A stretch of DNA of 64,000 nt, from the IMG/VR virus record IMGVR_UViG_3300023296_001674, one strand, 5' to 3'. The stretch's first letter is position 1. The number at the start of each line of letters is the position of its first letter. Positions 11,787 through 56,425 of this stretch are shown one piece after another. Under the pieces are notes generated by a model that saw nothing but the letters and a program-made list of their open reading frames with translations, searched no databases and was not told the origin of the DNA. The position numbers and the translations under genes are program-made. This DNA comes from a virus.

Positions 11787-11790
11787 CGAA

Positions 11791-12039: not shown

Positions 12040-12052
12040 AGAGGAATATATC

Positions 12053-12256: not shown

Positions 12257-12271
12257 ATAATGTAGTATAAT
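12243..12271 (+). promoter_or_regulatory. sigma70-type promoter candidate (full consensus)
   Basis: TTGACA (12243-12248), 17 nt, TATAAT (12266-12271). ATGTAGTAT box at 12260-12268. 31 nt before the ATG at 12302. Confidence 0.6.
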
Positions 12272-12301
12272 CAATACATTAACATAATAAAGGACGGCTT
12301 A

Positions 12302-22517: not shown

Positions 22518-22594
22518 GGGCGTGTATTCCAACCGGTAGAGAAACGAGACTTAAAATCTCGACAGTGTGGGTTCGAATCCCACCACGCCTACCA
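22518..22594 (+). tRNA. tRNA with anticodon UAA (Leu by anticodon) but class-I architecture; CCA encoded
   Basis: Hand-folded cloverleaf. Acceptor GGGCGTG/CACGCCT (G1-U72). D loop with GG. Anticodon stem CGAGA/TCTCG, loop CTTAAAA (TAA at 22552-22554). 5-nt variable region ACAGT. T arm GTGGG-TTCGAAT-CCCAC. Discriminator A, then CCA. Confidence 0.75.
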
Positions 22595-22598
22595 CATA

Positions 22599-22676
22599 GC
22601 TTCCGTCGTCTAACTGGATAAGGCACCCGACTTCTAATCGGGATATTTGTAGGTTCGAGTCCTACCGGGAGCACCA
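22599..22676 (+). tRNA. tRNA-Arg (anticodon UCU); CCA encoded
   Basis: Acceptor GCTTCCG/CGGGAGC. D stem GTCT/AGGC. Anticodon stem CCCGA/TCGGG, loop CTTCTAA (TCT at 22633-22635). T arm GTAGG-TTCGAGT-CCTAC. Discriminator A, then CCA. The variable region reads as 6 nt. Confidence 0.8.
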
Positions 22677-24021: not shown

Positions 24022-24257
24022 TGGCAAAAGTTATTTTACGCGAACCAGTAGATGTAATACGTTGGTGGCCGGGGGGCGACGAAATTGAAAATGTTACCGA
24101 GGTTCGTCATACTCAACTAGGATTTATTGGTCATTTGCAACAAGATGGAAATACGCTCATGGTAAAACCTGGTGATTATGTATTGTCATTTCTTGGAAAG
24201 CAAATAATAATGAATGAAGAAATTTTCAAAATCAACTTTAAAGGTCACAAAGAATGA
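24021..24257 (+). CDS. Hypothetical protein
   Basis: Translationally coupled on both sides (TAATG, ATGA). Confidence 0.5.
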   Translation: MAKVILREPVDVIRWWPGGDEIENVTEVRHTQLGFIGHLQQDGNTLMVKPGDYVLSFLGKQIIMNEEIFKINFKGHKE

Positions 24258-24646
24258 ATCAAGATATATGGGATCGATTAGATAAAGTTAGCACATTCAG
24301 GCTTACTTCATATTTGAAAAATGAATATCCACAAGTGGTTGGTGTCATTCTTTTCAATTTGTCTAGGAAAACGGTTGCTGGTGTAATGGATGAATTACCA
24401 GAAAATTTTGCTATGGAAGTTGTAATGCGTATGTTGCGCACGGATGATGTTCGCAAGGAAGTTATTGATATCATTGAAGACACATTACAGGATGAATTTT
24501 TTAATAATGTAGTCACTTATGACAATAAAGAAAAATTTATAGGTGATATGTTCGATGTTATGGTTCATTCTGATCACATGGTAGAACAGCTTGAAGAACG
24601 CAATCGTGAAATGGCTGAAAAAGTTAAGGGGTATATGGACACATGA
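24254..24646 (+). CDS. FliG middle-domain-like protein (flagellar rotor/switch homolog)
   Basis: LKNEYPQVVGVILFNLSRKTVAGVMDELPENFAMEVVMRMLRTDDV aligns by eye with E. coli FliG [46 protein letters not shown] (recalled), including the EHPQ-type motif. Confidence 0.7.
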   Translation: MNQDIWDRLDKVSTFRLTSYLKNEYPQVVGVILFNLSRKTVAGVMDELPENFAMEVVMRMLRTDDVRKEVIDIIEDTLQDEFFNNVVTYDNKEKFIGDMFDVMVHSDHMVEQLEERNREMAEKVKGYMDT

Positions 24647-25161
24647 TTAATCAATCTATGATAGAAGCATTAATACCGACAATGAAGAACACTGCATTTA
24701 AAGGTATTTGCACTAATCCAGATATTCAACTTGATAATTTGGCACTTATGACATTTGGTGAATATGTTGATACAATACCGCTTCCTGCAATGTGTTGTAA
24801 GTTTGATTTTGCTGGATATGCTGCATTTATCATATTTGATAGTTCATTGATATATTCTATGGTTGATGTTTTATCTGGTGGTCGTCGTGGCACCGCTGCA
24901 ATGCGAATTGAAGGCAGGGGATATACAACAATTGAAAAGCGCATTATTAAAGAATTAGTAATGGAATCAATTGTGAATGAGTTATTGTATGAACTCAATA
25001 TATTATCAAAAGATATATATATGGAAATAGAACATATAAGTCTCAGTCCAGATAATATGAGAAAGCAATTATCTGAAAATGAAATGGTTCAAATTGCACG
25101 AATGAGAGTAGACTTGGATGACCGTGGTGGTCGTTTCGAATTATGCGTTGAAGAACATTAA
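24643..25161 (+). CDS. FliM-like protein (N-terminal peptide + middle domain; no FliN-like C-terminal domain)
   Basis: AAFIIFDSSLIYSMVDVLSGGRRGTAAMRIEGRGYTTIEKRIIKEL versus E. coli FliM GLVVFSPSLVFIAVDNLFGGDGRFPTKVEGREFTHTEQRVINRM (recalled). GGxG motif present. N-terminal INQSMIEALI resembles LSQAEIDALL. Confidence 0.75.
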   Translation: MINQSMIEALIPTMKNTAFKGICTNPDIQLDNLALMTFGEYVDTIPLPAMCCKFDFAGYAAFIIFDSSLIYSMVDVLSGGRRGTAAMRIEGRGYTTIEKRIIKELVMESIVNELLYELNILSKDIYMEIEHISLSPDNMRKQLSENEMVQIARMRVDLDDRGGRFELCVEEH

Positions 25162-26639: not shown

Positions 26640-27083
26640 ATGATGGGTAAATCCATTTCACAAAACCGCAAAGTGCGCCATAACTATACCATTGATGATG
26701 AGTATGAAGCGGGTATTGTATTACAGGGCAACGAAGTAAAAAGTTTGGCTGTTGGACAGTGCAGCATTGCTGAATCGTATGTTACCATTGAAGGCAATGA
26801 AGCATTTTTGGTTAATGCGCATATTGATCCATATGATTTAGGTTCTAAGTTTGTGGCACAAGAGCCACGACGTCGGCGCAAATTATTGTTGCATAAACGC
26901 GAGATAAAGAATTTGCTTGTCAAATCGCAACAAGGGGGTTATACTATAGTTGCATTATCGATGTACTTCAATGACACGGGCAAGGTAAAACTTAAAATTG
27001 CCACTGCCAGAGGAAAGAAGAACTACGATAAGCGTGCCACGGAGAAGCAACGTGATTGGGATCGTGATAAGCGCAATTTATAG
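26640..27083 (+). CDS. smpB: SsrA-binding protein SmpB
   Basis: NRKVRHNYTIDDEYEAGIVLQGNEVKSL....I.ESYV...........H.DPY.......EPRRRRKLLLHKREI....K.QQGGYTIVALSMY....KVKLKIATARGKK.YDKR matches SmpB end to end. Confidence 0.9.
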   Translation: MMGKSISQNRKVRHNYTIDDEYEAGIVLQGNEVKSLAVGQCSIAESYVTIEGNEAFLVNAHIDPYDLGSKFVAQEPRRRRKLLLHKREIKNLLVKSQQGGYTIVALSMYFNDTGKVKLKIATARGKKNYDKRATEKQRDWDRDKRNL

Positions 27084-27471: not shown

Positions 27472-28503
27472 ATGTTTAATTTTAAAGATGTAGGATGGAA
27501 AAAATTAACGGCAGTGGGGACAATTAGTTTCTTTGTTATATATTTCATTGTTACGAGCATTCATGTTCAATACGCATCGGTTCGACCACATGTACTCAAT
27601 GAAAACATTATCGTATATGATGAAATTGATGTTGTTGGTTATCGAACGATTTCTGCTGCAAGGCAGCTTATCACAATGTTGACTAATAAAACTGGTGGAT
27701 ATATGTCTAACGACAAACTACCACCATATAGTTGGGCTGATGATATGCCTAATTGGGAGTTTGGTGTTATTAAAGTTCTTCGTGGTTATAACATTGTTCT
27801 TCGTGAAAACTTTACACGATCACAAACACAATCAGTTGAAGATAAAGACGCGGTTGCAGCGATGACTGCACTTAACGTAGACAATCTTTCATGGATGTTC
27901 CCATCAGTTGAAGGGTGGCCTTGGACAAAGGGCGAGTATGTTAAATCCAGCGAATCGTTGTTTGCACTTGAAAAACGATTACTTGATAACAATCCTGCCG
28001 ACGGAAACTTTTTCACACGTGCTACATCGTTGGCGACATTTATTAATCGCAGCAATAAAGTTTTAGGTAGCCACAGCCAACTATTATCGGCATCTGTTAC
28101 CAAAGAACGCATTAACACCGATATGACGGGTGACAAAAATGCAGAAGAAGCCAAACCACAAGAATATATCAACTCTGATATTTTAACATCGTGGTTACAA
28201 ATCGATGATAATTTTTGGGAAGCACAGGGTTCAATCTATGCATTGAGTGTTATCCTTAAAGCGATGGAAAGCGATTTTTATAAAGTGCTTGAAGATAAGA
28301 ACGCACTGCCAGCGCTACGCCAGATCATTGTTGAACTGGAAACTGCTCAGGGATTGGTTTATTCGCCACTAATTATTAATGGTGCAGGTTTAAACTCGAC
28401 GCCTTATGGACTTGGTGCAAACTATTCGTTAATTTTGGCAAACTACGTTAGCCGTGCAAGTGCTGCATTGACTGATTTGGAAAAGTTGCTTAAAAACGGA
28501 TAA
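27472..28503 (+). CDS. Membrane-anchored protein, DUF2333-like (tentative)
   Basis: N-terminal TM (LTAVGTISFFVIYFIVTSI). NDKLPPYSWADDMPNWEFGVIKVLRGYNIVLRENFTRSQTQSVEDKD resembles my recollection of DUF2333 proteins. Unverified. Confidence 0.45.
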   Translation: MFNFKDVGWKKLTAVGTISFFVIYFIVTSIHVQYASVRPHVLNENIIVYDEIDVVGYRTISAARQLITMLTNKTGGYMSNDKLPPYSWADDMPNWEFGVIKVLRGYNIVLRENFTRSQTQSVEDKDAVAAMTALNVDNLSWMFPSVEGWPWTKGEYVKSSESLFALEKRLLDNNPADGNFFTRATSLATFINRSNKVLGSHSQLLSASVTKERINTDMTGDKNAEEAKPQEYINSDILTSWLQIDDNFWEAQGSIYALSVILKAMESDFYKVLEDKNALPALRQIIVELETAQGLVYSPLIINGAGLNSTPYGLGANYSLILANYVSRASAALTDLEKLLKNG

Positions 28504-28509
28504 TAACAC

Positions 28510-28537
28510 TTGACGTAATGTAGTATTATGTTATATT
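28510..28537 (+). promoter_or_regulatory. sigma70-type promoter candidate
   Basis: TTGACG (28510-28515), 16 nt, TATATT (28532-28537). ATGTAGTAT box at 28518-28526. 33 nt before the ATG at 28570. Confidence 0.5.
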
Positions 28538-28569
28538 GATAATGAAATTGAAACTGTAGGAGAGATTAG

Positions 28570-29649
28570 ATGCAAGAATTTGAAACACAGATTAAAGAAA
28601 TTAGACAACAGATTAAAAATGGTGATGTTGATCAGGATGCGATTGCTGATGTGTTACAAAAATCTGGTATGGATATTGGTGATCTTGGTATTGACATCGA
28701 TATGGAAAATGCCAAACTTTCTGATATCATGCAACAACAAGAAGTTATGACTGGTAACATTGCTGGTTTGATTGTTGATTTGGATGGTGTTACCTCTGCC
28801 TTTGGTAGCCAGTTTAATGAAATGAAAGAAAAAACTGCGCTTGAAACGATTGTTGGTATTTTTATGAAATCCAAATCGATTGAAATGAGCCAAACACGTG
28901 TTCGTAATACTGATATCAGCGGCAACTTGAATGAGTTGATTCGTAAATCAGATACGATCACAACCATTCTCCAACAACAGTTGGAAGTTCTGGACGGCAG
29001 ATTTAATATTTCTAAAGACAGCCTTAAAGGCGTATTATCTGATCGTGAACAAACTGTTGGCGAACTTACTGATACACGTGAAAAGATTTCGGCACTTGAT
29101 CCGAGACTCATTGAAGCGGAACAAGCAGTTGAAAACGAAGCAGACCCCAAATTGCGCACACAAAAAGAAACTGCGTTGCAATTGTTGAATGAAGAATACA
29201 ACACACTTGTTAATGATGAGCAGCGGCTTACTGCACTTTCACAGACGCAAGAAAAATATGTGGAAATGTATAAAACGTTTGTTGATTCATTGGAGAACCA
29301 ACGTTCTACGCAGATGGTGTTGATTGCCAAGTTGCAAACAGACACGAAGCATCGTACTGTATTATATGATGCGTTAGCCAAATCATTGGTTACTGCATCA
29401 CAGCAAGAAGTTGCTCATAAAATCAACGACATCGGTTCAGCGGTTGATAATGAATCACAAGTAACAATGGCAAATCTTGGTTCGGCGGCAAACAATCGCA
29501 TGGCAGATATGATGGAATCACATGATGGCAATATGCTCGTTGCTAAAAAGGTTCAAGAAGAGAAAGCGAAAGCGGATGATCGTTTTGAGCGACGGTTTGG
29601 TGAAATTATGAAAAAGCACGATGCTGGAGAATATGGCAAAGCTGCTTAA
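28570..29649 (+). CDS. Coiled-coil protein, TelA-like (toxic-anion-resistance family) tentative
   Basis: 359 aa, the size and all-helical/coiled-coil composition typical of TelA/KlaA/YaaN. Local resemblance IVGIFMKSKS...LNELIRKSDTITTILQQQLEVL. Unverified. Confidence 0.4.
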   Translation: MQEFETQIKEIRQQIKNGDVDQDAIADVLQKSGMDIGDLGIDIDMENAKLSDIMQQQEVMTGNIAGLIVDLDGVTSAFGSQFNEMKEKTALETIVGIFMKSKSIEMSQTRVRNTDISGNLNELIRKSDTITTILQQQLEVLDGRFNISKDSLKGVLSDREQTVGELTDTREKISALDPRLIEAEQAVENEADPKLRTQKETALQLLNEEYNTLVNDEQRLTALSQTQEKYVEMYKTFVDSLENQRSTQMVLIAKLQTDTKHRTVLYDALAKSLVTASQQEVAHKINDIGSAVDNESQVTMANLGSAANNRMADMMESHDGNMLVAKKVQEEKAKADDRFERRFGEIMKKHDAGEYGKAA

Positions 29650-29686
29650 TCAATAGTTTTTATCTAAGATTAGAAAGGGATAGATT

Positions 29687-30844
29687 ATGAATAATGCGCG
29701 AGTAGTACAACAAGCAAATGACGAACACTTTGAGTTAACTGACAATGCTGAAACGAAAAGATATTTTGCTAAATTCTCGCGCATTATTTCCCTTTTGAGT
29801 TCGATATCGGAATCAGAACGCAAAGCACATAAAGAAGATTATGAAGCCGACATTATCATTGATGAATTAAGAAAGTTGTCGAATACATTCGAAGCATTAT
29901 CGATGAAGTATTTGTTTACAGGTGTTGTTCACAATAAACTACCAAAAAATCTTGAGATTGACACAACCGATTCTGGATTTCCGGTATTTCATGAGATATT
30001 ACAACTTGAAAATGATATGAGCCGGGCAACTGATGAATTTGATTCGTTGCCAGATTTTAAAACATTTAAAGATGATATGATCGATCACATGTTAAAGTAT
30101 CGCACACCCGCCCGTGAATTGCAATTTGGTATGTCACAAAAATGTTATTATGATTTGTTGACGCAGCGACGCATGTTTGTTACACGCAATATGCCAACGA
30201 TTGTTCCAATTGCAACAGAAGGCGACAACGAACTTACTTCAAAAAATAAAAAATATCTTATTCATTGGAGTGTTTATGATAGCGCCAAAAACTATCCTAA
30301 TGTTTATATCATGGTTGTAGAAGATTCTGCCAAACGTTTTGGTGAGAATACATTGTTGGACGATCCTGAAATATTGAAAGAACTTAAAGATACCATTCTA
30401 AATCAATCATTGTCATCATTGAAAATGGTAACGATTGCGATGAATATCGACAAAGATTTTGAACACTTGCATCCATTAAGTTTGAAACGGATTTATATTG
30501 GACCAATGTATAGCAATCGTTATACACACCACAATGATAACATCCAACGGGTTCTTAAAGAAGCAAAGCAGGGTTCAGATTGGGTGTTTGCATGGACGGT
30601 AGAAACATTGCTTTCAAAAGGAACCAAGACAATCAAGAAAGGATTGTTTGGCGACCAATTGCTTCAAGTGTATTATGTTGATCAGCACGATCATGAATCA
30701 TTCCAAAGCGGTAGCACTGAAACTGAGTATCATATGGTATTACCATACGAATCGTATCAGTGTTTACACGAAGACCCAACCAATCCATTGCATGGAATTT
30801 TCATCAAGGTGGTTGATAAAGATGGGCGGATATTGGAATTATGA
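29687..30844 (+). CDS. Hypothetical protein
   Basis: AAAGGGA RBS. 385 aa with no motif recognised. Confidence 0.55.
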   Translation: MNNARVVQQANDEHFELTDNAETKRYFAKFSRIISLLSSISESERKAHKEDYEADIIIDELRKLSNTFEALSMKYLFTGVVHNKLPKNLEIDTTDSGFPVFHEILQLENDMSRATDEFDSLPDFKTFKDDMIDHMLKYRTPARELQFGMSQKCYYDLLTQRRMFVTRNMPTIVPIATEGDNELTSKNKKYLIHWSVYDSAKNYPNVYIMVVEDSAKRFGENTLLDDPEILKELKDTILNQSLSSLKMVTIAMNIDKDFEHLHPLSLKRIYIGPMYSNRYTHHNDNIQRVLKEAKQGSDWVFAWTVETLLSKGTKTIKKGLFGDQLLQVYYVDQHDHESFQSGSTETEYHMVLPYESYQCLHEDPTNPLHGIFIKVVDKDGRILEL

Positions 30845-31068
30845 TACATTTTGATTTTGTATTAAGTGATGTCGATGCAGAGAATTTAATGTCTTTATTC
30901 GGTACTGCTATTGGCAATGATAATAATCAAATCATGAAAGAGATGGTTAAAGACGACCATGATGTTGATATCATTAAAGCATACAAACGCGATATTGAAT
31001 ATTTAAAAGAGTTGAAACTCAAAATGTCGAATACGCGGGTTGCAGAAAATGAAATCATTGCCGAGTAA
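30841..31068 (+). CDS. Hypothetical small protein
   Basis: ATGA overlap with the upstream stop. Confidence 0.5.
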   Translation: MIHFDFVLSDVDAENLMSLFGTAIGNDNNQIMKEMVKDDHDVDIIKAYKRDIEYLKELKLKMSNTRVAENEIIAE

Positions 31069-31252
31069 AGGTCATTTATTTTGGCGCAAAGAATTTTATT
31101 CTATGTGTTCTAAACATCAGATTAATAATCCCGATTGTTCATTGTGTAAAAATGGTAGATGGTGTAATGTATGGAAGCAGCACGTATCGCATATAATATT
31201 TATGATTGCTCCAGAGTTGTGGCGTTGGTGGGTTAATAAAAGGAGATCGTAA
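31049..31252 (+). CDS. Hypothetical Cys-rich small protein
   Basis: First ATG of the ORF. CSKHQINNPDCSLCKNGRWC. Confidence 0.4.
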   Translation: MKSLPSKGHLFWRKEFYSMCSKHQINNPDCSLCKNGRWCNVWKQHVSHIIFMIAPELWRWWVNKRRS

Positions 31253-31253
31253 T

Positions 31254-31439
31254 ATGGCATCATTTTCAAAAGAAGAATACATTGCTTATTTGACTAGCAA
31301 AATGAAACATCGATGCACAAGATATAAACGTGCTTCTGATGATAATCAACTTATCAAAAATGATTTGGATATCATATACGATGAACTATCAGAGTTGGAA
31401 ACAATTATGAATAGTTCTAGAGACACATTTTACTTATAG
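31254..31439 (+). CDS. Hypothetical small protein
   Basis: ATG 31254 lies 7 nt after AAGGAG. The listed 31206 start overlaps the upstream gene. Confidence 0.5.
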   Translation: MASFSKEEYIAYLTSKMKHRCTRYKRASDDNQLIKNDLDIIYDELSELETIMNSSRDTFYL

Positions 31440-31450
31440 GAGATTGTGAT

Positions 31451-31660
31451 ATGACTTTATTATATTTTAATGACGAAGAAAATGCTGCGATTGAAGAATT
31501 GGCGGCAAAACAAGGTCTTAGTTGTGCTGGTGTGTTACGCCAAGCAGTTCGGCTATATCAACAAGCGCACCATGAACTTGAAAAGGGAAATCAACTTGGT
31601 TATTATAATGCACAAGGGAATCGAGTGATTGATAAGCCGTTTGGATGCATGGGCGATTAA
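31451..31660 (+). CDS. Ribbon-helix-helix (CopG/antitoxin-like) DNA-binding protein, tentative
   Basis: TLLYFNDEENAAIEELAAKQGLSCAGVLRQAVRLY shows the beta-strand, helix, helix pattern of RHH proteins. TAGGAG RBS. Confidence 0.4.
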   Translation: MTLLYFNDEENAAIEELAAKQGLSCAGVLRQAVRLYQQAHHELEKGNQLGYYNAQGNRVIDKPFGCMGD

Positions 31661-31668
31661 TAAAGCAC

Positions 31669-31696
31669 TTGACGAATATTGTATTGCGAGTATAAT
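31669..31696 (+). promoter_or_regulatory. sigma70-type promoter candidate
   Basis: TTGACG (31669-31674), 16 nt, TATAAT (31691-31696). Confidence 0.55.
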
Positions 31697-31739
31697 GTAA
31701 TCAAACGCCCTATAATGAATGAAATGGAGATAAAGAACA

Positions 31740-33662
31740 ATGGATAAAAATTTAATGGAAATCAAAGAAGCAGACATTCTTAAACATTATACATCGGTGT
31801 TTGGATTGGTTACTGACTTCAGTTATACTCCTAAAGCCAAAAAAGATTCAGGCACAGAAGAAGTAGTTTCCGATACCACATACGTTCGTCGCACTAAGCG
31901 TTCTCATGTGTCGGGTATTAAATCAACTGGTTCTAAATCTAGTGTTGCATTAATGGATACAATCGAAGGCGTTGATGGTGATGATCCGTTGATTACCGAA
32001 ATTCAAAGCCATATGATTCGTGTCATTCGCCGTGCTATGGCTATTGCCAGTGAAGTGGTAGACGTGTTTGGAAATTCAACTAATCTCAATCGTCTTAAAG
32101 AAGCAAATGGCAATGGACGTGTTTCCGAAATTGAACGAATTGAATTTCAAGAATTATTGAACACTGCGTCATTGATTGGATTGTTTGTTACCACAAGTTA
32201 TGTAACATTTATTCTTTCTGATTATATGACCGACAGTGACACCATGCAAATTTCCATCGATCCAACCGAAGAAATTGTAATTGACAATCCGGTTATCGCA
32301 CTGAAAGGCGCACTATGGGAACTTGATGACAATATTAAAAAATACGCAAAAGATGATATTACGCTAGTCCGCGTAGTGAAAGATTATTTTGCACAGTTGA
32401 TGGCTGAATTGCAAATTCGTAAATCAGGAATTCGTCACGCCGAAGTATTCATTGACAATAACTATCGGGTTGAAGAAGATAAATTTGACATCATTGGTTT
32501 TGATACAGCCAAAAAAGGTAAATCAACCAAACTTATTATGCAATTTGTTAGACCAGATCAAGTTGTTGGTAATCACATCGCGAAATATCAAGCATTAAAA
32601 TTAGCAAAAATGGTTGCACTATATGATTTCACACGCCAACGTAATCCGATATTGGATGTTGCTGGATTTCCACTTGGTGTTATTGGCGACGGTAATCCTG
32701 GAACTGGTAAGACAACTCTTTATCAAATGTTTTGTGGATTGGTTAATGATTATGCACAGGCGCAAAATCGCCCATTCGTTGTTGAAGTGTTTACGCCTGA
32801 TATGATTAGTTCATATCAAGGTAAAACCGCACAGAACGCTAAACAGGCGCTAACAAGCGGTATGGACCCACACGTATTCGGCAGTGTGCTGTTTGATGAT
32901 GTCGATCAAACGACAGCAAGCCGTGGTGATGATAAAGCATCCGCTGGACAACAAGAAGTAACGTCGGTTCTTATGGAAACACTTGCTGGTGCCAATACAA
33001 TCATCCGTGGGAACGCTTCTGCCTTTTTGTTTAGTAATTATCCAGAAAAAGTAGATGACGCCCTACGGCAGCGATGTGGGCTTCGTTGGTTGGTTGATGG
33101 GCCACAAACATTGGAAGATTATCAAGATATTCTTGCTTTATTGTTGGGTAAAAATCATACACTTGACTTGGGTGGTATTGAGTTGTATACTACACAAGAT
33201 ATCAAGAAAGCGATTGGACGTAGTTACGAGAAGCATAATCGCCCCACAGAAACTGCATTGATTGAAGTATTTGATCGCGTAGTTGATGAACAGGGCGAGT
33301 TGAATACCATCGAAAAAGTTGGTATTTACCTGAAAGCGATTCAAGGTGCTGATCCACGATTTACAGGTCGATCAATTAAGAATATTACCGATACTTGTAA
33401 AATGCGTTCGGCTGATTTTGAAGTTCCTGACGAATGGGTTGAAAATCCAGAAGTATTTGTTGAACTTGACTATGATCGCAAGGTTGATATGCTTAAAGAG
33501 TTAGTTACGCCTATTACAAGCGAAATGGTTTTACAAGAAACTAACCGTTATGCTGATTCAGAGTTTCGTTATTCTGATAAAAGCGATGAAGCCGAAATTG
33601 TAAATATGGTTCGTTATCACCATAATAAAACTGAGGCTGACAAACGTATCAGAAATGATTGA
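31740..33662 (+). CDS. Classic AAA-family ATPase with ~300-aa unknown N-terminal region
   Basis: Walker A GDGNPGTGKTT, Walker B VLFDDVDQ, FLFSNYPEKVDDALRQRCG (ATN.P..LD.A..RR-type second region of homology). Confidence 0.75.
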   Translation: MDKNLMEIKEADILKHYTSVFGLVTDFSYTPKAKKDSGTEEVVSDTTYVRRTKRSHVSGIKSTGSKSSVALMDTIEGVDGDDPLITEIQSHMIRVIRRAMAIASEVVDVFGNSTNLNRLKEANGNGRVSEIERIEFQELLNTASLIGLFVTTSYVTFILSDYMTDSDTMQISIDPTEEIVIDNPVIALKGALWELDDNIKKYAKDDITLVRVVKDYFAQLMAELQIRKSGIRHAEVFIDNNYRVEEDKFDIIGFDTAKKGKSTKLIMQFVRPDQVVGNHIAKYQALKLAKMVALYDFTRQRNPILDVAGFPLGVIGDGNPGTGKTTLYQMFCGLVNDYAQAQNRPFVVEVFTPDMISSYQGKTAQNAKQALTSGMDPHVFGSVLFDDVDQTTASRGDDKASAGQQEVTSVLMETLAGANTIIRGNASAFLFSNYPEKVDDALRQRCGLRWLVDGPQTLEDYQDILALLLGKNHTLDLGGIELYTTQDIKKAIGRSYEKHNRPTETALIEVFDRVVDEQGELNTIEKVGIYLKAIQGADPRFTGRSIKNITDTCKMRSADFEVPDEWVENPEVFVELDYDRKVDMLKELVTPITSEMVLQETNRYADSEFRYSDKSDEAEIVNMVRYHHNKTEADKRIRND

Positions 33663-33678
33663 TTGAAGGGATAAAATA

Positions 33679-34956
33679 ATGCAATTACTTGTCGATAATG
33701 AGTTAAAGTATGGAAATTTGTTGTTGGTTGATTCTGCACATTTAATCGCACGGTATAATCGTGCATTGAATGTTATATGTGGAAAAAAGACCGAGTTGGA
33801 AATTTTTCATATTGATGGCAGTGGATATAGCCCCGAAGTCGCGAAAGAACTCGACGATAAAGAATATATGAATCCACACGGTGTTAATAAGAAAATCATC
33901 ATTTTGTCATTAGAACAAGAAGGTCTTCCAGTATTGGATTCTTATTTCTCCACTACACGTGATTTGATTAGACGATTTATTCAAGATAATAAATCTGAAC
34001 TTTTTGCACTAACGAGTCGTGATGTGGTTTATGGCGAACTGGAGAATTCAACATTCAAAATTGAAAGTTTCACGGATTTGCTATGTATTAAACGCATCAT
34101 ATTTGAAATCAATACAGTTGGTGATTCCATCAAAAAAGGAAAACAGCTTACCAGTTTGATTAAATCATTTATGGTTAACGATAATATGTGGCATGATGAA
34201 AAAACGGTTGAAGAGATTATTGGGTTATCATCTGTGGTTGGTGATATTCGTCGACACCAAGTGACGCCGTCGCACACCGAATATAAACAAATCAATTTTT
34301 ATTCACGGCATTACGGCGGCGTATATGTATTCAATCACGACAATGGTGATTATACAGTTATTGCGCATGAAGAACAATACAGAAAAGAGGCTGAAACTTG
34401 TCATTTAAATGTTAAATTCATCCACATAGATGATAAAAAAGAAGTGATTGCATTTTTAAAGAAGAATAACATCGTTGAGATGTATAGTGATCGATATTTG
34501 CGCAAGAATATAGATTTGATGCGTGAAAAAATTAATTTCATCGCAATTGATCATATGTCACAGACGCACACAGACGCAGATTTGACGGATATTAGCGATG
34601 ATGAAATTAAAAAATATATTTATGATCACTATGATGAGTTACCTAAAGAGTTCCGCGTTCTTTCAAAAGCAGTAAAATTGATTGATAACGGATATTCTGT
34701 GGATTTGGAATCTGGTTCTGATGATATATTTTTCTACTTTGCTCGTTCTAGCGATCACGATCTCAAAGATTTGGTTAATCAATTGATTGCGTATTACACG
34801 CCGTTAGATTTTCTAAATGTGTTTATATCCAACAAACGTGCTTTTTATGAGTTGTATGACGAGTGGTCCAATAGTAAAAAATCATTTGTTGTTAATTACT
34901 TGGTTAGAGAATATCAACAAGATAAACACAGAATTAAAGGTAAATTCTTTGGGTAA
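33679..34956 (+). CDS. Hypothetical protein
   Basis: GAAGGGA RBS. 425 aa with no motif recognised. Confidence 0.55.
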   Translation: MQLLVDNELKYGNLLLVDSAHLIARYNRALNVICGKKTELEIFHIDGSGYSPEVAKELDDKEYMNPHGVNKKIIILSLEQEGLPVLDSYFSTTRDLIRRFIQDNKSELFALTSRDVVYGELENSTFKIESFTDLLCIKRIIFEINTVGDSIKKGKQLTSLIKSFMVNDNMWHDEKTVEEIIGLSSVVGDIRRHQVTPSHTEYKQINFYSRHYGGVYVFNHDNGDYTVIAHEEQYRKEAETCHLNVKFIHIDDKKEVIAFLKKNNIVEMYSDRYLRKNIDLMREKINFIAIDHMSQTHTDADLTDISDDEIKKYIYDHYDELPKEFRVLSKAVKLIDNGYSVDLESGSDDIFFYFARSSDHDLKDLVNQLIAYYTPLDFLNVFISNKRAFYELYDEWSNSKKSFVVNYLVREYQQDKHRIKGKFFG

Positions 34957-36618: not shown

Positions 36619-37419
36619 ATGACAAAAATTCAAGAATTTCTACAAGAAGCTACCGTAATAGATACCGAAACTACCGGCGTAAATTTTAAAGAAGATGAAG
36701 TAGTCGAAGTTGCAGGTGGACGTTTAATAAATGATGAATGGAAAGTTGAATCGCTTCTCATGGGTTCAAATAATCCAGTTCCACCCGGTGCAAGTGCCGT
36801 TAATAACATCAGTAATAAAATGATTGCAGGGCTACCAAAATTTGATCAATGCATAGAAACTATAAATGATATTGTACATGTAGATTCAACAAAATATATG
36901 GTTGCACATAACTCCAATTTTGATAGACGAATGATGCTTGTTTCTTATGAACGAGCAAATGATACAGTATTCAATAAATTCGAAATTCAAGAAGATTGGA
37001 TTTGCACATGGAAACTGGCACAACAATTATATCCAAAAGATGGTGTGATGAAATACAGTTTGGCGTATTTGCGATACTATCTTGAGTTAGACATCAGTGA
37101 TGATATGCTTGCTCACCGCGCTGGCGCAGATGTTACAATGTGTGGCATATTGCTTCAACGATTGATAGAAGAAGCCATCAAGCAAGATAAAATCGATGAT
37201 ACACAAGACATTGGTACACAATTACAAAAACTTTGTTGGCAACGAATGAATATAGATTTATGGCCTTTAGGAAAGCACAAAGGAACTAAGATATCAGAAG
37301 TTCCAACAAAATATCTCATGTGGTGCACCGATAAAATTGATTTATTGGATGAAACTCACACTAAATTCGATAAAGATTTATTCACTTCAGTAGTAAAAGT
37401 ATTAGAATCGAGGCTGTAA
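36619..37419 (+). CDS. DnaQ/ExoX-like DEDDh 3'-5' exonuclease
   Basis: Exo I VIDTETTG, Exo II MVAHNSNFDRRM, Exo III HRAGADV. C-terminal KHKGTKISEVPTKYLMWC resembles the ExoX C-terminal module. Confidence 0.85.
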   Translation: MTKIQEFLQEATVIDTETTGVNFKEDEVVEVAGGRLINDEWKVESLLMGSNNPVPPGASAVNNISNKMIAGLPKFDQCIETINDIVHVDSTKYMVAHNSNFDRRMMLVSYERANDTVFNKFEIQEDWICTWKLAQQLYPKDGVMKYSLAYLRYYLELDISDDMLAHRAGADVTMCGILLQRLIEEAIKQDKIDDTQDIGTQLQKLCWQRMNIDLWPLGKHKGTKISEVPTKYLMWCTDKIDLLDETHTKFDKDLFTSVVKVLESRL

Positions 37420-37462
37420 TAGCCGGTTTTTAATAAATATCATTAGATCAAAGGGAGATTTA

Positions 37463-37981
37463 ATGATGTTTGGATTGGGTACACTTGGAACTAAATTAAT
37501 TATTGCTGGTATTGTAGTTGCCGTTATTAGTACTGCTGTTGGTGGGTTTTTTCTTTATCAAAAAAGCATTGTTTCGGATTTGCAAGATAAAATAGACTTT
37601 CAGGCTGAAGAAATAACGACGCTGACTGGCAATGTTATAAAGTTGAAGGCAAGCAATGAAAGCTTGGAGTTACAGGCAACAAAAAAAGCAGCAGAAACAA
37701 AAGCAGCGTATGCTGAAATAACACGCTTGCGTGTGGTAGACAGCGAATCTACGGCTCGGGTTAATGAAGTGGAAAGTATACTTCGTGATAGTAATAGAAA
37801 TAAACAATTAGATTCTGTCAGAAAATCTAAAAGAGCTAGTTTTCTACTTAGATTGATGGATTTGGATGCTACATGTCAAGTTGTTAATTTCGATAATGTT
37901 AATGGAAAATGCGTAAGAGGAAAATGGGTTCCAAAAGGAGAAAGAGTTATTGAGTTGGAGGTAAAATCCGATGAAAAATAA
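37463..37981 (+). CDS. Membrane-anchored coiled-coil protein (i-spanin-like candidate)
   Basis: N-terminal TM (LIIAGIVVAVISTAVGGFFLY) followed by coiled-coil. Overlaps the next (lipoprotein) gene by 11 nt. Confidence 0.45.
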   Translation: MMFGLGTLGTKLIIAGIVVAVISTAVGGFFLYQKSIVSDLQDKIDFQAEEITTLTGNVIKLKASNESLELQATKKAAETKAAYAEITRLRVVDSESTARVNEVESILRDSNRNKQLDSVRKSKRASFLLRLMDLDATCQVVNFDNVNGKCVRGKWVPKGERVIELEVKSDEK

Positions 37982-38531
37982 CATTTTATATGCCGTAGTA
38001 TTATTGATGGTGTTAACTGGATGTGAACAAGTGCAAAAAACTGAATCTATTAAATTGGTAACTGCTACCACTTATCCTGAATTACCAGACATCGAACCAT
38101 TATCTGATCCGGGGTTACTACCATGGAAACATAATATGCCACGCGATATGGAAGTTATGTCAGTTATAAACAACACTGCATGTCGTAAAGTTAAAACCAA
38201 AATAAATGAACGCATACCTTATGTGGTTGAACCTGTTGAAGAACAAACTAAAACATGGTGGAAAAAATGTGGTGAGCATCCAATATTTCCAGAAACTAAT
38301 ATTCATGTTGGTTTCGATTTAGAAAATTGGAATATAGTACTTTCTAATTTATTCAAATTAAAAGAACGCAATTGGCAGTATAAACAACGTGTATTGGAAA
38401 TAAATAATCAACGCGAAACATGGCGCAATCAAGCAGAGCGCGAACGTATAAAAATACCCATAGAACCACCAAAAAAAGAAGAACCAAAAGAAGAAAAATC
38501 GTTTTTTAAATCATTGTTCAGTGACGATTAA
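37971..38531 (+). CDS. Lipoprotein (o-spanin-like candidate, unusually long)
   Basis: Signal peptide plus lipobox LLMVLTG/C. P/E/K-rich C-terminus. Confidence 0.5.
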   Translation: MKNNILYAVVLLMVLTGCEQVQKTESIKLVTATTYPELPDIEPLSDPGLLPWKHNMPRDMEVMSVINNTACRKVKTKINERIPYVVEPVEEQTKTWWKKCGEHPIFPETNIHVGFDLENWNIVLSNLFKLKERNWQYKQRVLEINNQRETWRNQAERERIKIPIEPPKKEEPKEEKSFFKSLFSDD

Positions 38532-38535
38532 GTTA

Positions 38536-38564
38536 TTGACAAATATGCATTATTGACGTATATT
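38536..38564 (+). promoter_or_regulatory. sigma70-type promoter candidate abutting the dnaJ start
   Basis: TTGACA (38536-38541), 17 nt, TATATT (38559-38564). The ATG at 38571 lies 7 nt after the -10. Confidence 0.45.
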
Positions 38565-38570
38565 ATATCT

Positions 38571-39416
38571 ATGAAAAAATATTATGAAACATTAGAAGTC
38601 GAAAAAACAGCAACCGATGCCGAAATTAAAAAATCGTATCGCAAGTTGGCTATGAAATATCATCCTGATACAAATCCCGATGATGTAACAGCCGAAAATA
38701 ATTTCAAAGAAATAAATGAAGCATATGAGGTTTTATCCGACGAAACGAAAAAATCTAACTATGATACATTTGGCGATCCTGATGGTAGACCTACACCACA
38801 CACTAGCCAGCACGGTTTTGGTGGTGGTTTTCAATCAGCAACAGATTTTAATGATATTTTCAATGATATTATGAATGCACGAAGTGCACCAAAAAATGCT
38901 CATGCACAATCACAAATGACTATTACATTGGAAGAGGCGTATGTAGGATCATCAGTTGAGATAGAAATAACTAATCATAAAAATATATCATCAAAGCAAA
39001 ATATAAGAATTCCCGCTGGTATTAAACATGGTATGACGTTACGCCTTGCGGGTGCCGGTCATCATCACATTGAGGAGTTGCCACCCGGTGATTTATTGGT
39101 TAATATACAAATCACACCACATTCCATATTTACTGTGGTAGATTACAATTTAATCATGGAAGAAAAAATTAGCATGATCGAAGCCGTGTTTGGCAAGGAA
39201 ATAGAAGTTACTACATTGGCTGGAAAAACTTTGAAATTAGAAATTCCAAAAGGAACGCAACCAAATCATAAAATTCGATTAAAAGGTAAAGGAATGCCCG
39301 TATTAAACAGAAAAGATGTATTTGGTGATTTATATATAATTGTCAATGTTGAAATACCTACGAATATAACACAAAAACAACGAGATTTATTAAGTGAATT
39401 TAATGAAGTTTCTTGA
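38571..39416 (+). CDS. dnaJ: DnaJ/CbpA-like J-domain co-chaperone (no zinc-finger domain)
   Basis: J domain YYETLEVEKTATDAEIKKSYRKLAMKYHPD. G/F region GFGGGF. C-terminal beta domains. No CxxCxGxG repeats. Confidence 0.85.
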   Translation: MKKYYETLEVEKTATDAEIKKSYRKLAMKYHPDTNPDDVTAENNFKEINEAYEVLSDETKKSNYDTFGDPDGRPTPHTSQHGFGGGFQSATDFNDIFNDIMNARSAPKNAHAQSQMTITLEEAYVGSSVEIEITNHKNISSKQNIRIPAGIKHGMTLRLAGAGHHHIEELPPGDLLVNIQITPHSIFTVVDYNLIMEEKISMIEAVFGKEIEVTTLAGKTLKLEIPKGTQPNHKIRLKGKGMPVLNRKDVFGDLYIIVNVEIPTNITQKQRDLLSEFNEVS

Positions 39417-39441
39417 CAAAATATAAGTGTTAAGTTATAGT
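39413..39441 (+). promoter_or_regulatory. sigma70-type promoter candidate
   Basis: TTGACA (39413-39418, overlapping the dnaJ stop), 17 nt, TATAGT (39436-39441). 33 nt before the ATG at 39474. Confidence 0.5.
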
Positions 39442-39473
39442 TAGTTAATAGTTAATAGCACATAGGATGAAAT

Positions 39474-40004
39474 ATGATAGAAATTGTTTTAGAAGATGAT
39501 CCAGCATTAAAAATTGTTGTGCCACTATATGATTTTGACGAGCCGTTGAATATTGTAACTACACAAGATGAATTCGGTTTAACTGAATTCATTGATGCTA
39601 TGTTTGTGACCATGAAATTGAATAAAGGTCTCGGTTTGGCGGCTAATCAAATAGGACAAAACGTTCGCGTATTTGTTATGGATTTTTACGGCGAAGAATT
39701 TATTTGTATCAATCCAATAATTGAACAGTCATCAACAGAATTTACAATAGATCAAGAAGGCTGTTTAAGTTTTCCAGATTTATCATTAAATGTAAAACGA
39801 TCATCTGAAATATTTGTATCGTATTCAAATATCGATGGCGTTGAAATTCAAAGATGGTTATCTGGTATTACAGCTAGGTGTTTTCAACATGAACTAGATC
39901 ATTTGAATGGGATAACATTCGATTCACAAGTTGCAAAGCTAAGTTTAAAAATGGCTAAAGACAAAAGAAGAAAAAAAATAAAACAAAAACAAAGGAATAC
40001 CTAA
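39474..40004 (+). CDS. def: Peptide deformylase
   Basis: Motif 1 GLGLAANQIG, motif 2 EGCLSFP, motif 3 QHELDHLNG. Confidence 0.9.
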   Translation: MIEIVLEDDPALKIVVPLYDFDEPLNIVTTQDEFGLTEFIDAMFVTMKLNKGLGLAANQIGQNVRVFVMDFYGEEFICINPIIEQSSTEFTIDQEGCLSFPDLSLNVKRSSEIFVSYSNIDGVEIQRWLSGITARCFQHELDHLNGITFDSQVAKLSLKMAKDKRRKKIKQKQRNT

Positions 40005-42263
40005 ATGCCTAACGGATTTGACCAACGACACATTTCTATAATGCTTCAAAAAGCAGTAACATTAGCAGAAAAATACGATCACATATATATAACATTAGAA
40101 CATATCAGTTTAGTATTACTGGATGATAAGTCCGTTGATCACGGTATTAAAGAATGCGGCGGCGACATAAAACTTATTAAAGAAATGGTTTTGACTGCAT
40201 TGTTAGATGAAGCAGATATAACTGAAGCAGGAACTGAGCCACAACCAACAAGAGCAGTCATCAATGTTATTCAACGGGCAATCCAGCATTCTGTTGGATC
40301 AGGCCGCAATACAGTTGAACCATTTTATCTTATGGCAAGTTTGTTAATGGAAAAAGATTCCGTTGCTGTATGGGCATTAGCACAACAAAATGTTGATCGT
40401 GTAAGTTTTATTAGAACTATAAATGTTCCACCATCAGGACAAAATAAAGGTGGCCCGATGAATGAACTCGATCCTATAACGGGTCAACCTATGCCACAAC
40501 CTGAAAATGCATTAAGAGATTATTGTGTTAATTTGAATGAAAAGGTAATTGCTGGTGATATTGATCCATTGATAGGTCGCGAAAAAGAAATTGAACGGTC
40601 ACTACAAGTTTTATCTAGACGACGCAAAAACAATCCATTGCTTGTTGGTGAGCCAGGAGTTGGTAAAACCGCTATTGCAGAAGGATTGGCATGGAAAATT
40701 GTTAATGAAACCGTGCCAAATTATATCAAAGATTCTATTGTATATTCGTTGGATATTGGTGCACTTATGGCTGGTGCCAAATTTCGCGGTGATGTCGAAG
40801 AACGATTAAAAGCGGTTCTTGCCGGATTGGAAGAAGTTGGCAAAACCAACAAAACCATATTATTCATTGATGAAATTCATACCATTATTGGTGCGGGTGC
40901 TACATCAGGTGGAAGTATGGATGTTAGTAACCTATTGAAACCCGCACTTGCTGCTGGTTCATTACGTTGCATGGGTTCCACCACATATGCTGAATATAAT
41001 AAGTATTTCGAAAAAGATGCGGCACTTAAGCGTCGTTTCAAAAAAATTGATATTATTGAACCTACTGTTGATGAAACAAAAACTATTATCAAAGGTTTGG
41101 CAAAATATTTTGCTGAGTATCATGAAGTTAAATTCACAAAAGAAGCATTAATGAGTGCAGTTGATTTATCCGTTAAGCATATACACGATAACAAACTTCC
41201 AGATAAAGCGATTGATGTTATTGATGAGGCGGCGGCAGCACAAAGATTATTCGATGGCGAAGATCGCCTTGAAATCATTGATGTTAAACAAATTGAAGAA
41301 ACCGTTGCAAAGATTGCAAGGATTTCTATTGATGCAACATCAAAAACCGACAAAGATAGATTGCGTAACCTTGCAGAAAATCTAACAACACATGTGTTTG
41401 GTCAAGAAGAAGCGATTGATGTTCTAACCAAGGCAGTTAAATTAAGCAAATCTGGATTGCGTGAAGAAAATAAACCGATTGGTAATTTCTTATTCAGTGG
41501 ACCTACAGGCGTAGGTAAAACCGAAGTTGCAAAACGTCTTGCCGATGAACTAGACGTTCCGTTGGTGCGATTTGATATGTCTGAATATATGCAAAAGCAC
41601 GAAGTGTCTAAACTTATTGGATCGCCACCTGGTTATGTTGGTCATGATGATAGTGATGGATTTTTAATTGAAGAAATTGATAAGCATAATTATTGTGTTT
41701 TATTGTTAGATGAAATCGAAAAAGCACACCAAGATATATTCAACGTTCTGTTACAAGTTATGGATAATGCAACACTAACCGGTGGTCGCAATAAAACAGT
41801 GCGCTTTGACAATGTTATAATCATCATGACATCAAATGCTGGTGCATCAGACCTTGCAAAAGAAGTTATGGGATTTGGCAACGAAGAGCGAGTTGGCGAT
41901 GATCTTATAGCCATCGAAAAATTATTTACACCTGAATTTAGAAATCGTTTGGATAAAATCGTTGGATTTAAACCATTACAACAAGAAATAATGAATAAAG
42001 TTGTTGTTAAATTTATAAAACAATTGAAAGTTCAACTTAAAACACAGGATGTTAAACTTACGTTGATGAAGAAAGCCATTGAGTGGCTTGCCGTTAAAGG
42101 ATACAGTTCCAAATATGGAGCACGACCACTTTCGCGTGTAATAGACAATCATATCAAGCAGCCAATATCTGAAGAGTTATTATTTGGTCAACTTGAAAAT
42201 GGTGGTTCAGTTAAAATTGACATCGTTGAAGACGAACTTGAATTCACTTACAAACCAAAATAA
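40005..42263 (+). CDS. clpA: ClpA-type double-AAA+ unfoldase
   Basis: N-domain [67 protein letters not shown]2 [13 protein letters not shown] and [10 protein letters not shown]. About 750 aa without a long ClpB middle domain. MGFG loop in the ClpP-docking position. Confidence 0.9.
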
Positions 42264-42277
42264 CGGAATAATACGCG

Positions 42278-42463
42278 ATGACAGAAGTATTAAAATCATT
42301 ATATATACAAAGTGAAATATCGCGCATAACTAAACGCATTAAACAATATAATCAAATTTACCATTCGTTAGAAATAAAAGATTTGAATTTAAAACGATTG
42401 ATAACTAATAAACAACGAGAAATAGATATCTTAGATATGATATCAAGAGGAAACAATCAATGA
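42278..42463 (+). CDS. Hypothetical small protein
   Basis: Coupled to the next gene (ATGA overlap). Confidence 0.45.
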   Translation: MTEVLKSLYIQSEISRITKRIKQYNQIYHSLEIKDLNLKRLITNKQREIDILDMISRGNNQ

Positions 42464-42783
42464 CTGAAATAGAAACAAGAGCTACATTATTCGCCGTAAA
42501 ATCTATGTTCCCAGCAGAACACATTGAAACAGCCAATCGATTAGAATGGTGTCAAGAAAACAACATGGAATTTTTTAATGTTAGCATTCGTGGCACCAAA
42601 GTGGGTGATGTATTTTATGACGAACAAGAAATGCAAGAAATTGGCGTTCTTGAATTGCTTGATGCAGATGGTGTCAAAAAAGGCGAGATAAACCTTGAAA
42701 CATTACCACCAATCAACATCGGTATGGGATTTGTGTTTCATGATGAAACAGATGCCGCAGCATTTAAGCTGCAATGGAACTAA
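42460..42783 (+). CDS. AFKLRW-tail family small protein (...DAAAFKLQWN)
   Basis: LEWCQEN plus C-terminal DAAAFKLQW. Confidence 0.65.
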   Translation: MTEIETRATLFAVKSMFPAEHIETANRLEWCQENNMEFFNVSIRGTKVGDVFYDEQEMQEIGVLELLDADGVKKGEINLETLPPINIGMGFVFHDETDAAAFKLQWN

Positions 42784-42977
42784 TAAAAGTATCAGTTGGC
42801 AGTGATACAAATTTAGTTGATAATTCTATAATATGGTGCAAAGAAAATAATATAAACTTTGAAAAATATGAACCAATTCATAAATCTAATAAATTTGATC
42901 GTGATATAATCGTTGGTTTTATTTTTTATTTTTTAGCAGAAGAGGACGCGTTTGCATTTAAACTGCGATGGGTTTAA
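42774..42977 (+). CDS. AFKLRW-tail family small protein (...DAFAFKLRWV)
   Basis: IIWCKEN plus C-terminal AFKLRW. Its ATG is embedded in the CAATGG (Q-W) codons of the upstream tail (10-nt overlap). Confidence 0.65.
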   Translation: MELIKVSVGSDTNLVDNSIIWCKENNINFEKYEPIHKSNKFDRDIIVGFIFYFLAEEDAFAFKLRWV

Positions 42978-42980
42978 GTG

Positions 42981-43009
42981 TTGACATTACCATATTATTA
43001 ATATATTAT
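42981..43009 (+). promoter_or_regulatory. sigma70-type promoter candidate
   Basis: TTGACA (42981-42986), 17 nt, TATTAT (43004-43009). 35 nt before the ATG at 43044. Confidence 0.55.
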
Positions 43010-43043
43010 ATAGTATAGTGAAAATAGAGAAGGATTATAAAAT

Positions 43044-56295: not shown

Positions 56296-56425
56296 CTTGA
56301 TTTTCCTTGGCTTTTATGATAGTATAAATAATAAAGTAGTGGGACAGCCCAACTTCCTTGGCGGGTTTTAGTTGTTGAAACCAACTAATTACCACTATAT
56401 CTATTTATTTTTTGGAGTTAAAATC

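Follow-up and report, generated by a model that had tools for sequence, protein, structure and literature searches.

A huge phage carries an undescribed, widespread bacterial gene module with a predicted classic-clade AAA+ ATPase

The IMG/VR virus record IMGVR_UViG_3300023296_001674 was analysed over a stretch of 64,000 nt (the window), with the + strand gene block at positions 27472-34956 as the object of study. Within the block, the phage carries its own version of a bacterial gene module that is widespread and so far undescribed. The module is a real conserved unit with a core of four collinear genes, which encode, in this order, a helical protein (CC), a member of a large protein family absent from Pfam (U), a AAA+ ATPase (AAA) and a DUF6638 family protein. 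A membrane-anchored fifth gene is usually present, which in the window encodes a DUF2333 family protein. All nine tightly spaced + strand open reading frames (ORFs) reported by an initial annotation, made from the letters of the sequence, were recovered in the block, and gene calling carried out independently on the parent contig yielded the same set (Table 1). The block had been regarded there as a functional module and not as a chance run of genes, and this view is borne out by the collinearity of CC, U, AAA and DUF6638 in essentially every related locus. The extent given to it, nine genes, was too wide: five genes are conserved, but the four small ORFs are without counterpart in any other locus. 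Alongside this conserved neighbourhood, no assignment of the proteins to well-known unrelated functions was obtained.

A relative of the ATPase is encoded in the genomes of at least 571 bacterial species (scan with the ATPase as query, one genome per species). The best 80 of these species, described here, are all Alphaproteobacteria and comprise Rhodobacterales, Stappiaceae, Hyphomicrobiales and metagenome-assembled genomes of the Caulobacterales/Maricaulales type; members of the Kiloniellales occur among the protein matches of the ATPase, for which over 100 full-length homologues with identities around 50% were retrieved. Gene neighbourhoods were inspected in 81 alphaproteobacterial and 18 other loci (designated by L numbers), and the counts that follow refer to loci with enough flanking sequence. 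The CC gene was present in 75 of 77 alphaproteobacterial and 17 of 18 other loci (92/95 in total), the U gene in 76/77 and 18/18 (94/95) and the DUF6638 gene in 69/70 and 17/17 (86/87). The CC missing from one of the 18 other loci (L106) was recovered with a hidden Markov model. The order CC, U, AAA, DUF6638 was invariable in the inspected loci: where present, the U gene lies upstream of the ATPase gene, directly adjacent to it in most bacterial loci as well as in locus L087, and the DUF6638 gene always follows downstream. This order is kept even where U is only 24-25% identical (L103, L106), and the four-gene core is also found in Vibrio replicons of 0.88-0.94 Mb and in Sinorhizobium meliloti.

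Three of the inspected records deserve separate mention. L031 is the only one of the 81 alphaproteobacterial loci with the ATPase and no detectable CC, U and DUF6638 within 10 kb; it holds two ORFs of about 645 amino acid residues (aa) and may be a rearranged or duplicated locus. In L107 (Vibrio parahaemolyticus NZ_CP062152.1, 134634-152457) and three similar records the four-gene core is located next to mfd. The Vibrio replicons of this size are recorded as plasmids, and the L107 stretch has a guanine-cytosine (GC) content of 37%; that of the Vibrio chromosome is about 45%. L108 (S. meliloti Ak57 CP090106.1) is a 3.7 Mb record labelled 'plasmid pSymB' in PLSDB. Since it carries genes for a shmR-like haem receptor, choVW, tdk and fhs, which we take to be chromosomal in strain 1021, it is evidently the S. 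meliloti chromosome under a wrong label.

The carrier of the window copy is classed by its replication genes as a huge phage of the T4 superfamily with a size of about 570 kb. The exact ATPase protein was located on a metagenomic contig of about 570 kb, of which the window is a part and which bears the ENA identifier ERZ27315719 k141_202852. Among the window's genes are those for a split topoisomerase II of T4 type (9893-11284 and 12302-14182), and the assignment follows from its large subunit, which is closest (48%) to its counterparts in two jumbo phages of 469-490 kb, Sinorhizobium phage Phosso and Agrobacterium phage Atu_ph07, while the best plasmid matches reach only about 27%. Virion genes were not found in the 64-kb window. 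An inference of the host from GC content was dropped, with Phosso itself having locally about 50% GC.

All four core genes are located at 28570-34956 of the window, collinear and on one strand. In BLASTP comparisons with an Aliiroseovarius locus, identities were 49% for CC (E = 8e-113), 33% for U (3e-73) and 34% for DUF6638 (8e-95), and the window AAA shares 49% identity with its Aliiroseovarius counterpart. The nearest relative of the window core is L087 (38% GC) with identities of 59-61%, a divergence of about 40%; from all bacterial versions the phage core lineage has diverged by about 40-50%. None of the four proteins was found in 50,697 deposited phage genomes, and a scan of IMG/VR with the ATPase gave no relative. 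The phage CC, U, AAA and DUF6638 proteins retain every family-invariant residue. Because of this retention, and because the GC content of the module (36.8%) is near the phage background (34.7% in the window), the phage module is an old, maintained acquisition. Should L087 also be a phage contig, its divergence from the window would mean that phages have long retained the module.

The four small ORFs between the U and ATPase genes (30841..31660) had no tblastn match in the 81 bacterial loci or in L083-L087 and are phage-specific inserts outside the conserved module. The last of them, of 69 aa, had been described as ribbon-helix-helix (RHH)-like; a weak similarity to RHH_1 exists (E = 1.6e-3; PHROG transcriptional regulator, 7.4e-4), but its 18.8 bits remain under the gathering score of 20.5 bits. 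In bacterial loci the gap between CC and U measures 0 to 0.66 kb and the gap between AAA and DUF6638 0 to 2.4 kb. Both slots (L001, L006-L078 and L108) are hot spots for unrelated small genes that leave the core intact, among them Hypoth_Ymh, an HNH endonuclease, DUF2971 and a DUF559 endonuclease with the insertion sequence element ISRm16. A tenth ORF of 221 aa follows DUF6638 in the window. It has a TTG start with AAAGG upstream and may be co-translated with DUF6638; its membership in the module is unsupported, with no tblastn homologue in related loci and no Pfam match.

The membrane-anchored partner differs among lineages. DUF6638 is followed by a protein of about 89 aa with two transmembrane (TM) segments and by DUF1523, a protein with an N-terminal and a C-proximal TM segment, in 68 of 69 alphaproteobacterial loci, including those of Rhodobacterales; DUF2333 was absent within 10 kb in all 69 alphaproteobacterial GTDB loci. 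In L088, L089, L093 and L100, a DUF2333 protein that scores above the Pfam cut-off and has an N-terminal TM segment is encoded directly downstream of DUF6638. The gene after DUF6638 in S. meliloti is annotated as 'DUF2333 family protein', and in L087 the DUF2333 gene lies directly upstream of CC, the position it has in the window. The pairing of a membrane protein with the AAA protein, noticed in the initial annotation, thereby recurs: at least six loci from several lineages link DUF2333 to the core. DUF2333 and DUF1523 occur together in none of 84 loci. Both proteins are lacking in further lineages, in some of which the operon encodes different TM proteins.

The DUF2333-like character that the initial annotation had given to the window protein, beside an N-terminal TM segment, was confirmed by a match to PF10095 with 305 bits (gathering score 22), in which residues 20-343 align with profile positions 13-330 of 330; the N-terminal hydrophobic segment spans residues ~11-30. 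By the positive-inside rule, the bulk of the protein is probably periplasmic. A profile search against the PDB gave no match. The module-linked DUF2333 proteins constitute one subfamily (33-73% identity), to which the window protein is an outlier of canonical type with 21-27% identity; its identity to a sequence from a Pseudomonas phage record amounts to 44%. In total, three distinct DUF2333 lineages adjoin the core, and those of the window and L087 differ though they share the same slot. As different lineages fill this slot in the two closest relatives, the three lineages beside the same core argue for a functional coupling of DUF2333 and the core. The window DUF2333 appears to be an in-situ replacement, the phage having swapped in a different DUF2333.

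The ATPase contains a single AAA module at residues ~280-500, with a Pfam AAA match at residues 318-449, and the strings quoted for it initially (GNPGTGKTT, VLFDDVDQ and SNYPEKVDDALRQR) are all present. Its Walker A motif GNPGTGKTT (residues 318-326) corresponds to GxPGTGK[TS] in 26 of 26 divergent homologues. Likewise conserved in the 26 sequences are the pore loop [YF]-Q-G at 359-361, the sensor-1 residues SN at 432-433 and the arginines of DDALRQR..R at 439-449. The best relatives in PDB and NCBIfam are Afg2/Drg1, PAN, CbbX, FIGL1, Vps4, SpoVK and EccA, all far below the family cut-offs; the NCBIfam matches to SpoVK (1.8e-7), CbbX (4.8e-6) and EccA (1.2e-4) reach about 20-30 bits against cut-offs of 420-470, with SpoVK at 30 bits against 423. 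Since these relatives are all classic-clade, the ATPase is assigned by sequence to the classic AAA clade, as was proposed at the outset. The narrower label of a Vps4-type ATPase did not hold: Vps4 (E ~4e-4) ranks behind Afg2, PAN, CbbX and FIGL1, and a MIT domain is missing. In the structural model, the N-terminal region consists of a conserved N-terminal peptide, a disordered linker at ~35-64 and a five-helix bundle at ~87-230. The profile of this N-domain had no match in the PDB, and no MIT or other Pfam domain was detected at E <= 0.1. A TM helix in the N-domain was considered and rejected (median Kyte-Doolittle 1.54; 19/53 sequences reach 1.6; packed in the modelled bundle). A helical C-terminal extension carrying the motif YADSEFRY is conserved and found only in this family.

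CC is the most conserved non-ATPase component, with a mean column identity of 79% in its family. Searches for CC in Pfam, PHROG, NCBIfam, PADLOC and PDB remained without match, apart from coiled-coil noise in Pfam. The all-helical character ascribed to it fits its composition (2 Pro; 41% E/Q/K/L/A), as far as sequence can tell. Two features stand out: a conserved hydrophobic-basic patch at residues ~91-104 and a C-terminal amphipathic helix, F-x-x-R-F-x-x-[IV], at residues 339-347, which is kept down to 32% identity. The two families to which the initial annotation had likened CC were not recovered at profile level. Neither TelA nor PspA_IM30 or Snf7 was matched by 20 family members at E <= 10, and the hhalign probability was 0.08% against TelA of phage Phosso and 0.9% against PspA of Escherichia coli. 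The Phosso protein (L111, 40789-41850) is itself a genuine TelA (Pfam TelA, PF05816, 312 bits).

At E <= 1e-3, the U family comprises 353 clusters formed at 50% identity, almost all with a length of 340-415 aa, and U has no Pfam, PHROG or NCBIfam match. The AlphaFold2 model is of high confidence, with a predicted local distance difference test (pLDDT) of 93.5 and a predicted template modelling score (pTM) of 0.92; it begins with a helical hairpin at the N-terminus, continues with a helical domain and ends in a C-terminal half rich in beta-sheet. Among the solved structures of the PDB, U has no relative. Across 116 homologues, G, P and W make up most of the near-invariant residues, joined by Y26, S96, D198, D255, R268 and Q358, and this pattern suggests a scaffolding or adaptor role for U more than an enzymatic one. 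A PADLOC match of U to BrxA (1.5e-4) was discarded as chance, as it appeared in 1 of 14 family members. The last core protein, initially listed as unknown, does have a name: it matches Pfam DUF6638 (PF20343) over residues 11-425 with 336 bits against a gathering score of 27. It had no PDB or PADLOC match.

For the function of the module we favour, with a probability of roughly 0.4, a membrane-coupled AAA+ protein-remodelling machine with CC as its client. The ATPase is proposed to be an active translocase because its Walker A motif, aromatic pore loop, sensor-1 and arginine fingers are conserved. It would be a soluble hexamer acting at the cytoplasmic face of the inner membrane, where it would engage assemblies of CC via its N-terminal helical domain and remodel or disassemble them; the C-terminal amphipathic helix of CC would be the likely handle. 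U and DUF6638 would serve as obligate cofactors of the ATPase, and the bitopic DUF2333 (or DUF1523) would form the connection between the machine and the envelope or periplasm. During infection, the phage would use such a module for the upkeep or reshaping of the membrane or envelope of its host.

Several points weigh against this interpretation. The Walker B motif of the ATPase reads hhDD[IV]DQ, with an Asp at the Glu position that is invariant in the family. The Walker B consensus of classic-clade AAA proteins is hhhhDE with a catalytic Glu, and the Asp may mean a weak or regulated hydrolysis. The ATPase model is mediocre (pLDDT 69.6, pTM 0.43), with values of 83-93 in the N-terminal bundle, and a Foldseek search with it against the PDB found nothing significant (best FtsH, E = 0.04). 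Polymerisation of CC, its binding to membranes and its contact with the ATPase are proposals, as are the parts that CC, DUF6638 and DUF2333 would play in the machine. DUF2333 could presumably contact cytoplasmic partners with no more than its short N-terminal tail and TM helix, and since the window DUF2333 is of a lineage other than the module-linked ones, its adjacency could be coincidental. In seven assessable lineages, DUF2333 and DUF1523 are both missing from the neighbourhood, and three of these show no TM gene at all. Finally, in microarray tables of S. meliloti lipid mutants, SMc02730 and SMc02735 were essentially unregulated.

In S. meliloti the module is located between shmR (SMc02726, confirmed) and the choline transporter genes, at roughly SMc02730-35, the mapping of tags to genes being inferred. 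The choline transporter genes bound the interval that holds SMc02733 by locus tags that we presume to be correct. The sole lead in the literature is a ChvI-binding fragment inside SMc02733 (PMC3687685). For DUF2333, DUF6638, DUF1523 and their PF numbers, the literature yielded incidental mentions, and no functional literature was found. PHROG, Pfam, NCBIfam, PADLOC and PDB provided no assignment of the module proteins to a specific system. An explanation as virion proteins was rejected, there being no structural match in PHROG.

The same genes may be read in other ways. It is doubtful that the module acts as a membrane-protein quality control or export chaperone in the manner of Msp1, FtsH, Bcs1 or EccA, in which CC, U and DUF6638 would be adaptors and not clients. 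Such a role would agree with the presence of SpoVK, CbbX and the type VII secretion system (T7SS) ATPase EccA, whose N-terminal helical domain has about 280 aa, among the best NCBIfam matches, with membrane partners that are interchangeable around a constant cytoplasmic core, and with the proteostasis neighbourhood in the phage, where SmpB is encoded upstream and DnaJ, peptide deformylase and ClpB downstream. Yet the scores stay far under every family cut-off, none of the loci has secretion-system genes nearby, and some lineages are without an adjacent membrane gene. A role in anti-phage defence or superinfection exclusion is unlikely. Here the ATPase and its partners would sense infection and trigger DUF2333 or DUF1523 as a membrane effector, and the phage would use the module to exclude competitors. 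Defence systems are usually patchy and fast-evolving, unlike a module with this degree of CC conservation, a very stable gene content in the inspected loci and an ATPase relative in so many species. The operon slots do collect genes typical of defence islands or selfish elements (Hypoth_Ymh, HNH, DUF2971, DUF559 with an insertion sequence), but the flanks consist of housekeeping genes (panBC, choXWV, tdk, fhs). Similarly, TRIP13 is the best PADLOC match of the ATPase (1.2e-7), but the matches in PADLOC 2.0 are to generic AAA proteins only (TRIP13, IetA), next to the chance BrxA match of U and none for DUF6638. That the module resides on Vibrio replicons of very large size and low GC content as well as in a huge phage, and that an anti-Pycsar Apyc1-like gene lies 8 kb downstream of the window copy, would be in keeping with defence.

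That the four-gene core alone is the unit, with the window DUF2333 a chance neighbour and the phage copy perhaps passenger DNA without a role in infection, we consider distinctly improbable. The canonical, stand-alone type of the window DUF2333, its low identity to the module-linked copies, the lack of DUF2333 in the 69 alphaproteobacterial loci and the absence of core genes from deposited phages and of an ATPase relative from the IMG/VR scan all speak for it. Against it, L087, the nearest relative of the core, has DUF2333 in exactly the same upstream position, and five further loci have it after DUF6638. Moreover, passenger DNA is difficult to reconcile with phage proteins that retain every family-invariant residue and with a base composition near the phage background; the divergence between the window and L087 points in the same direction if L087 is a phage contig.

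The favoured remodelling machine shares traits with several described systems. Like Vps4/ESCRT-III (CdvB/CdvC in archaea, CHMP/Snf7 in eukaryotes), it would combine a classic-clade, single-ring-type AAA ATPase bearing a helical N-terminal domain with a conserved helical protein that has a C-terminal amphipathic helix and is encoded beside the ATPase gene, and it is genetically linked to membrane proteins. The F-x-x-R-F-x-x-[IV] helix of CC loosely resembles the MIM1 pattern of ESCRT-III, which is (D/E)xxLxxRLxxL(K/R). In contrast to that system, the CC members do not match Snf7 or PspA_IM30, the ATPase has no MIT domain and a Walker B motif with DD instead of DE, and two extra invariant partners, U and DUF6638, are present. 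CC also has about 360 aa, whereas ESCRT-III and PspA proteins have roughly 220. We regard it as very improbable that the module realises the principle of ESCRT-III/Vps4 in bacteria and the phage with unrelated parts. By that analogy, CC would polymerise on the inner membrane via its hydrophobic-basic patch, and the helical N-domain of the ATPase would capture the F-x-x-R-F-x-x-[IV] helix and disassemble the polymer. U and DUF6638 might be nucleators or adaptors, DUF2333 or DUF1523 might signal across the membrane, and the huge phage would have captured the machine to remodel host membranes during infection.

The PspA/PspF/PspBC system resembles the module in uniting a helical effector, small membrane proteins and a AAA+ protein in one locus, and in the proposed role in envelope stress. 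It differs in that the CC profile reaches an hhalign probability of only 0.9% against E. coli PspA and in that PspF is a sigma-54 enhancer-binding AAA+ protein of a different clade, which regulates transcription and does not thread substrates. In CbbX, SpoVK and EccA, too, a single AAA module follows an N-domain of roughly 300 aa that is peculiar to each family, and the best PDB matches include CbbX; the partners of these ATPases (Rubisco, spore coat and T7SS) are absent here, and the YADSEFRY extension is found only here. TelA/KlaB shares with CC a length of about 350 aa and a helical character, and a genuine TelA occurs in the related phage Phosso, but the profile comparisons with TelA were negative. 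Overall, the module matches no specific described system, and is of a known kind only in so far as it is a classic AAA+ motor with dedicated partners.

The genes of the block are separated by intergenic gaps of -20 to +79 nt, and most of them are preceded by a purine-rich, Shine-Dalgarno-like stretch. The two sigma70-type promoters initially proposed exist as sites and represent the best matches in the two largest internal intergenic gaps of the block (Table 1), but they are unproven, because the total of promoter-like matches in the region (54) is not above that in shuffled sequence (48.9 +/- 7.4). The -35 hexamer TTGACG, followed after 16-17 nt by TATAAT or TATATT, recurs at 28510, 31669 and 35412. 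These sites may be a phage promoter class; the overall site count is at chance level.

Table 1 Features of the gene block and of translation-related genes in the 64,000-nt window
Feature	Coordinates	Strand	Remark
DUF2333 family membrane protein, 343 aa	27472-28503	+	Pfam PF10095
Promoter-like site TTGACG-16-TATATT (10/12), extended -10 TG	28510..28537	+	66-nt gap before CC
CC, helical protein, 359 aa	28570-29649	+	conserved core
U, 385 aa	29687-30844	+	large family absent from Pfam
Small ORF, 75 aa	30841-31068	+	phage-specific
Small ORF, 67 aa	31049-31252	+	phage-specific
Small ORF, 61 aa	31254-31439	+	phage-specific
Small ORF, 69 aa	31451-31660	+	weak RHH/CopG-like match; phage-specific
Promoter-like site TTGACG-16-TATAAT (11/12, region's best)	31669..31696	+	79-nt gap before ATPase gene
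Predicted classic-clade AAA+ ATPase, 640 aa	31740-33662	+	Pfam AAA
DUF6638 family protein, 425 aa	33679-34956	+	Pfam PF20343
Tenth ORF, 221 aa	34949-35614	+	overlaps DUF6638 stop codon by 8 nt
Translation genes (two tRNAs, cysteinyl-tRNA synthetase, class II aminoacyl-tRNA synthetase)	22518-22676, 49372-50673, 56372-57643		

Further genes of the window complete the picture of the carrier. The window encodes HNH endonucleases, and the gene of one of them, at 14165-15295, lies on the opposite strand directly after the topoisomerase large subunit, so that the cluster spans 9893-15295; its product is likely a homing endonuclease. The translation genes are those for tRNA-Leu(taa), tRNA-Arg(tct), cysteinyl-tRNA synthetase and a class II aminoacyl-tRNA synthetase with an HGTP anticodon-binding domain. 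SmpB (PF01668) is encoded at 26640-27083, just upstream of the module, and ARAGORN found no transfer-messenger RNA gene anywhere in the 64 kb window. Downstream of the module, a proteostasis and counter-defence cluster at 36619-43823 encodes an RNase T-like exonuclease, DnaJ, peptide deformylase, a ClpB-like double AAA protein of 752 aa and the anti-Pycsar Apyc1-like protein, which has a metallo-beta-lactamase fold. Phosso has a load of proteostasis and translation genes comparable to that of the window, including ClpS, a Clp ATPase, a small heat-shock protein, IF-3 and ribosomal protein S21. Two adjacent ORFs at 24254-24646 (130 aa) and 24643-25161 (172 aa) have Pfam matches to FliG_M and FliM, flagellar-switch-like domains that are unusual for a huge phage.

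The five-gene module is undescribed and yet widespread, occurring in roseobacters, stappiaceae and rhizobia, including the model organism S. meliloti, and on Vibrio replicons of megabase size. Two of its protein families, CC and U, are absent from Pfam, and the fold of U is confidently predicted and without solved relative. The S. meliloti locus at roughly SMc02730-35 offers an immediate experimental handle on the function. For huge phages, the module adds a new class of host-derived cargo beside the known translation and chaperone genes. As the phage keeps an intact copy of near-background composition into which a different DUF2333 was apparently swapped, the module may take part in a generic cellular process that is important during infection.

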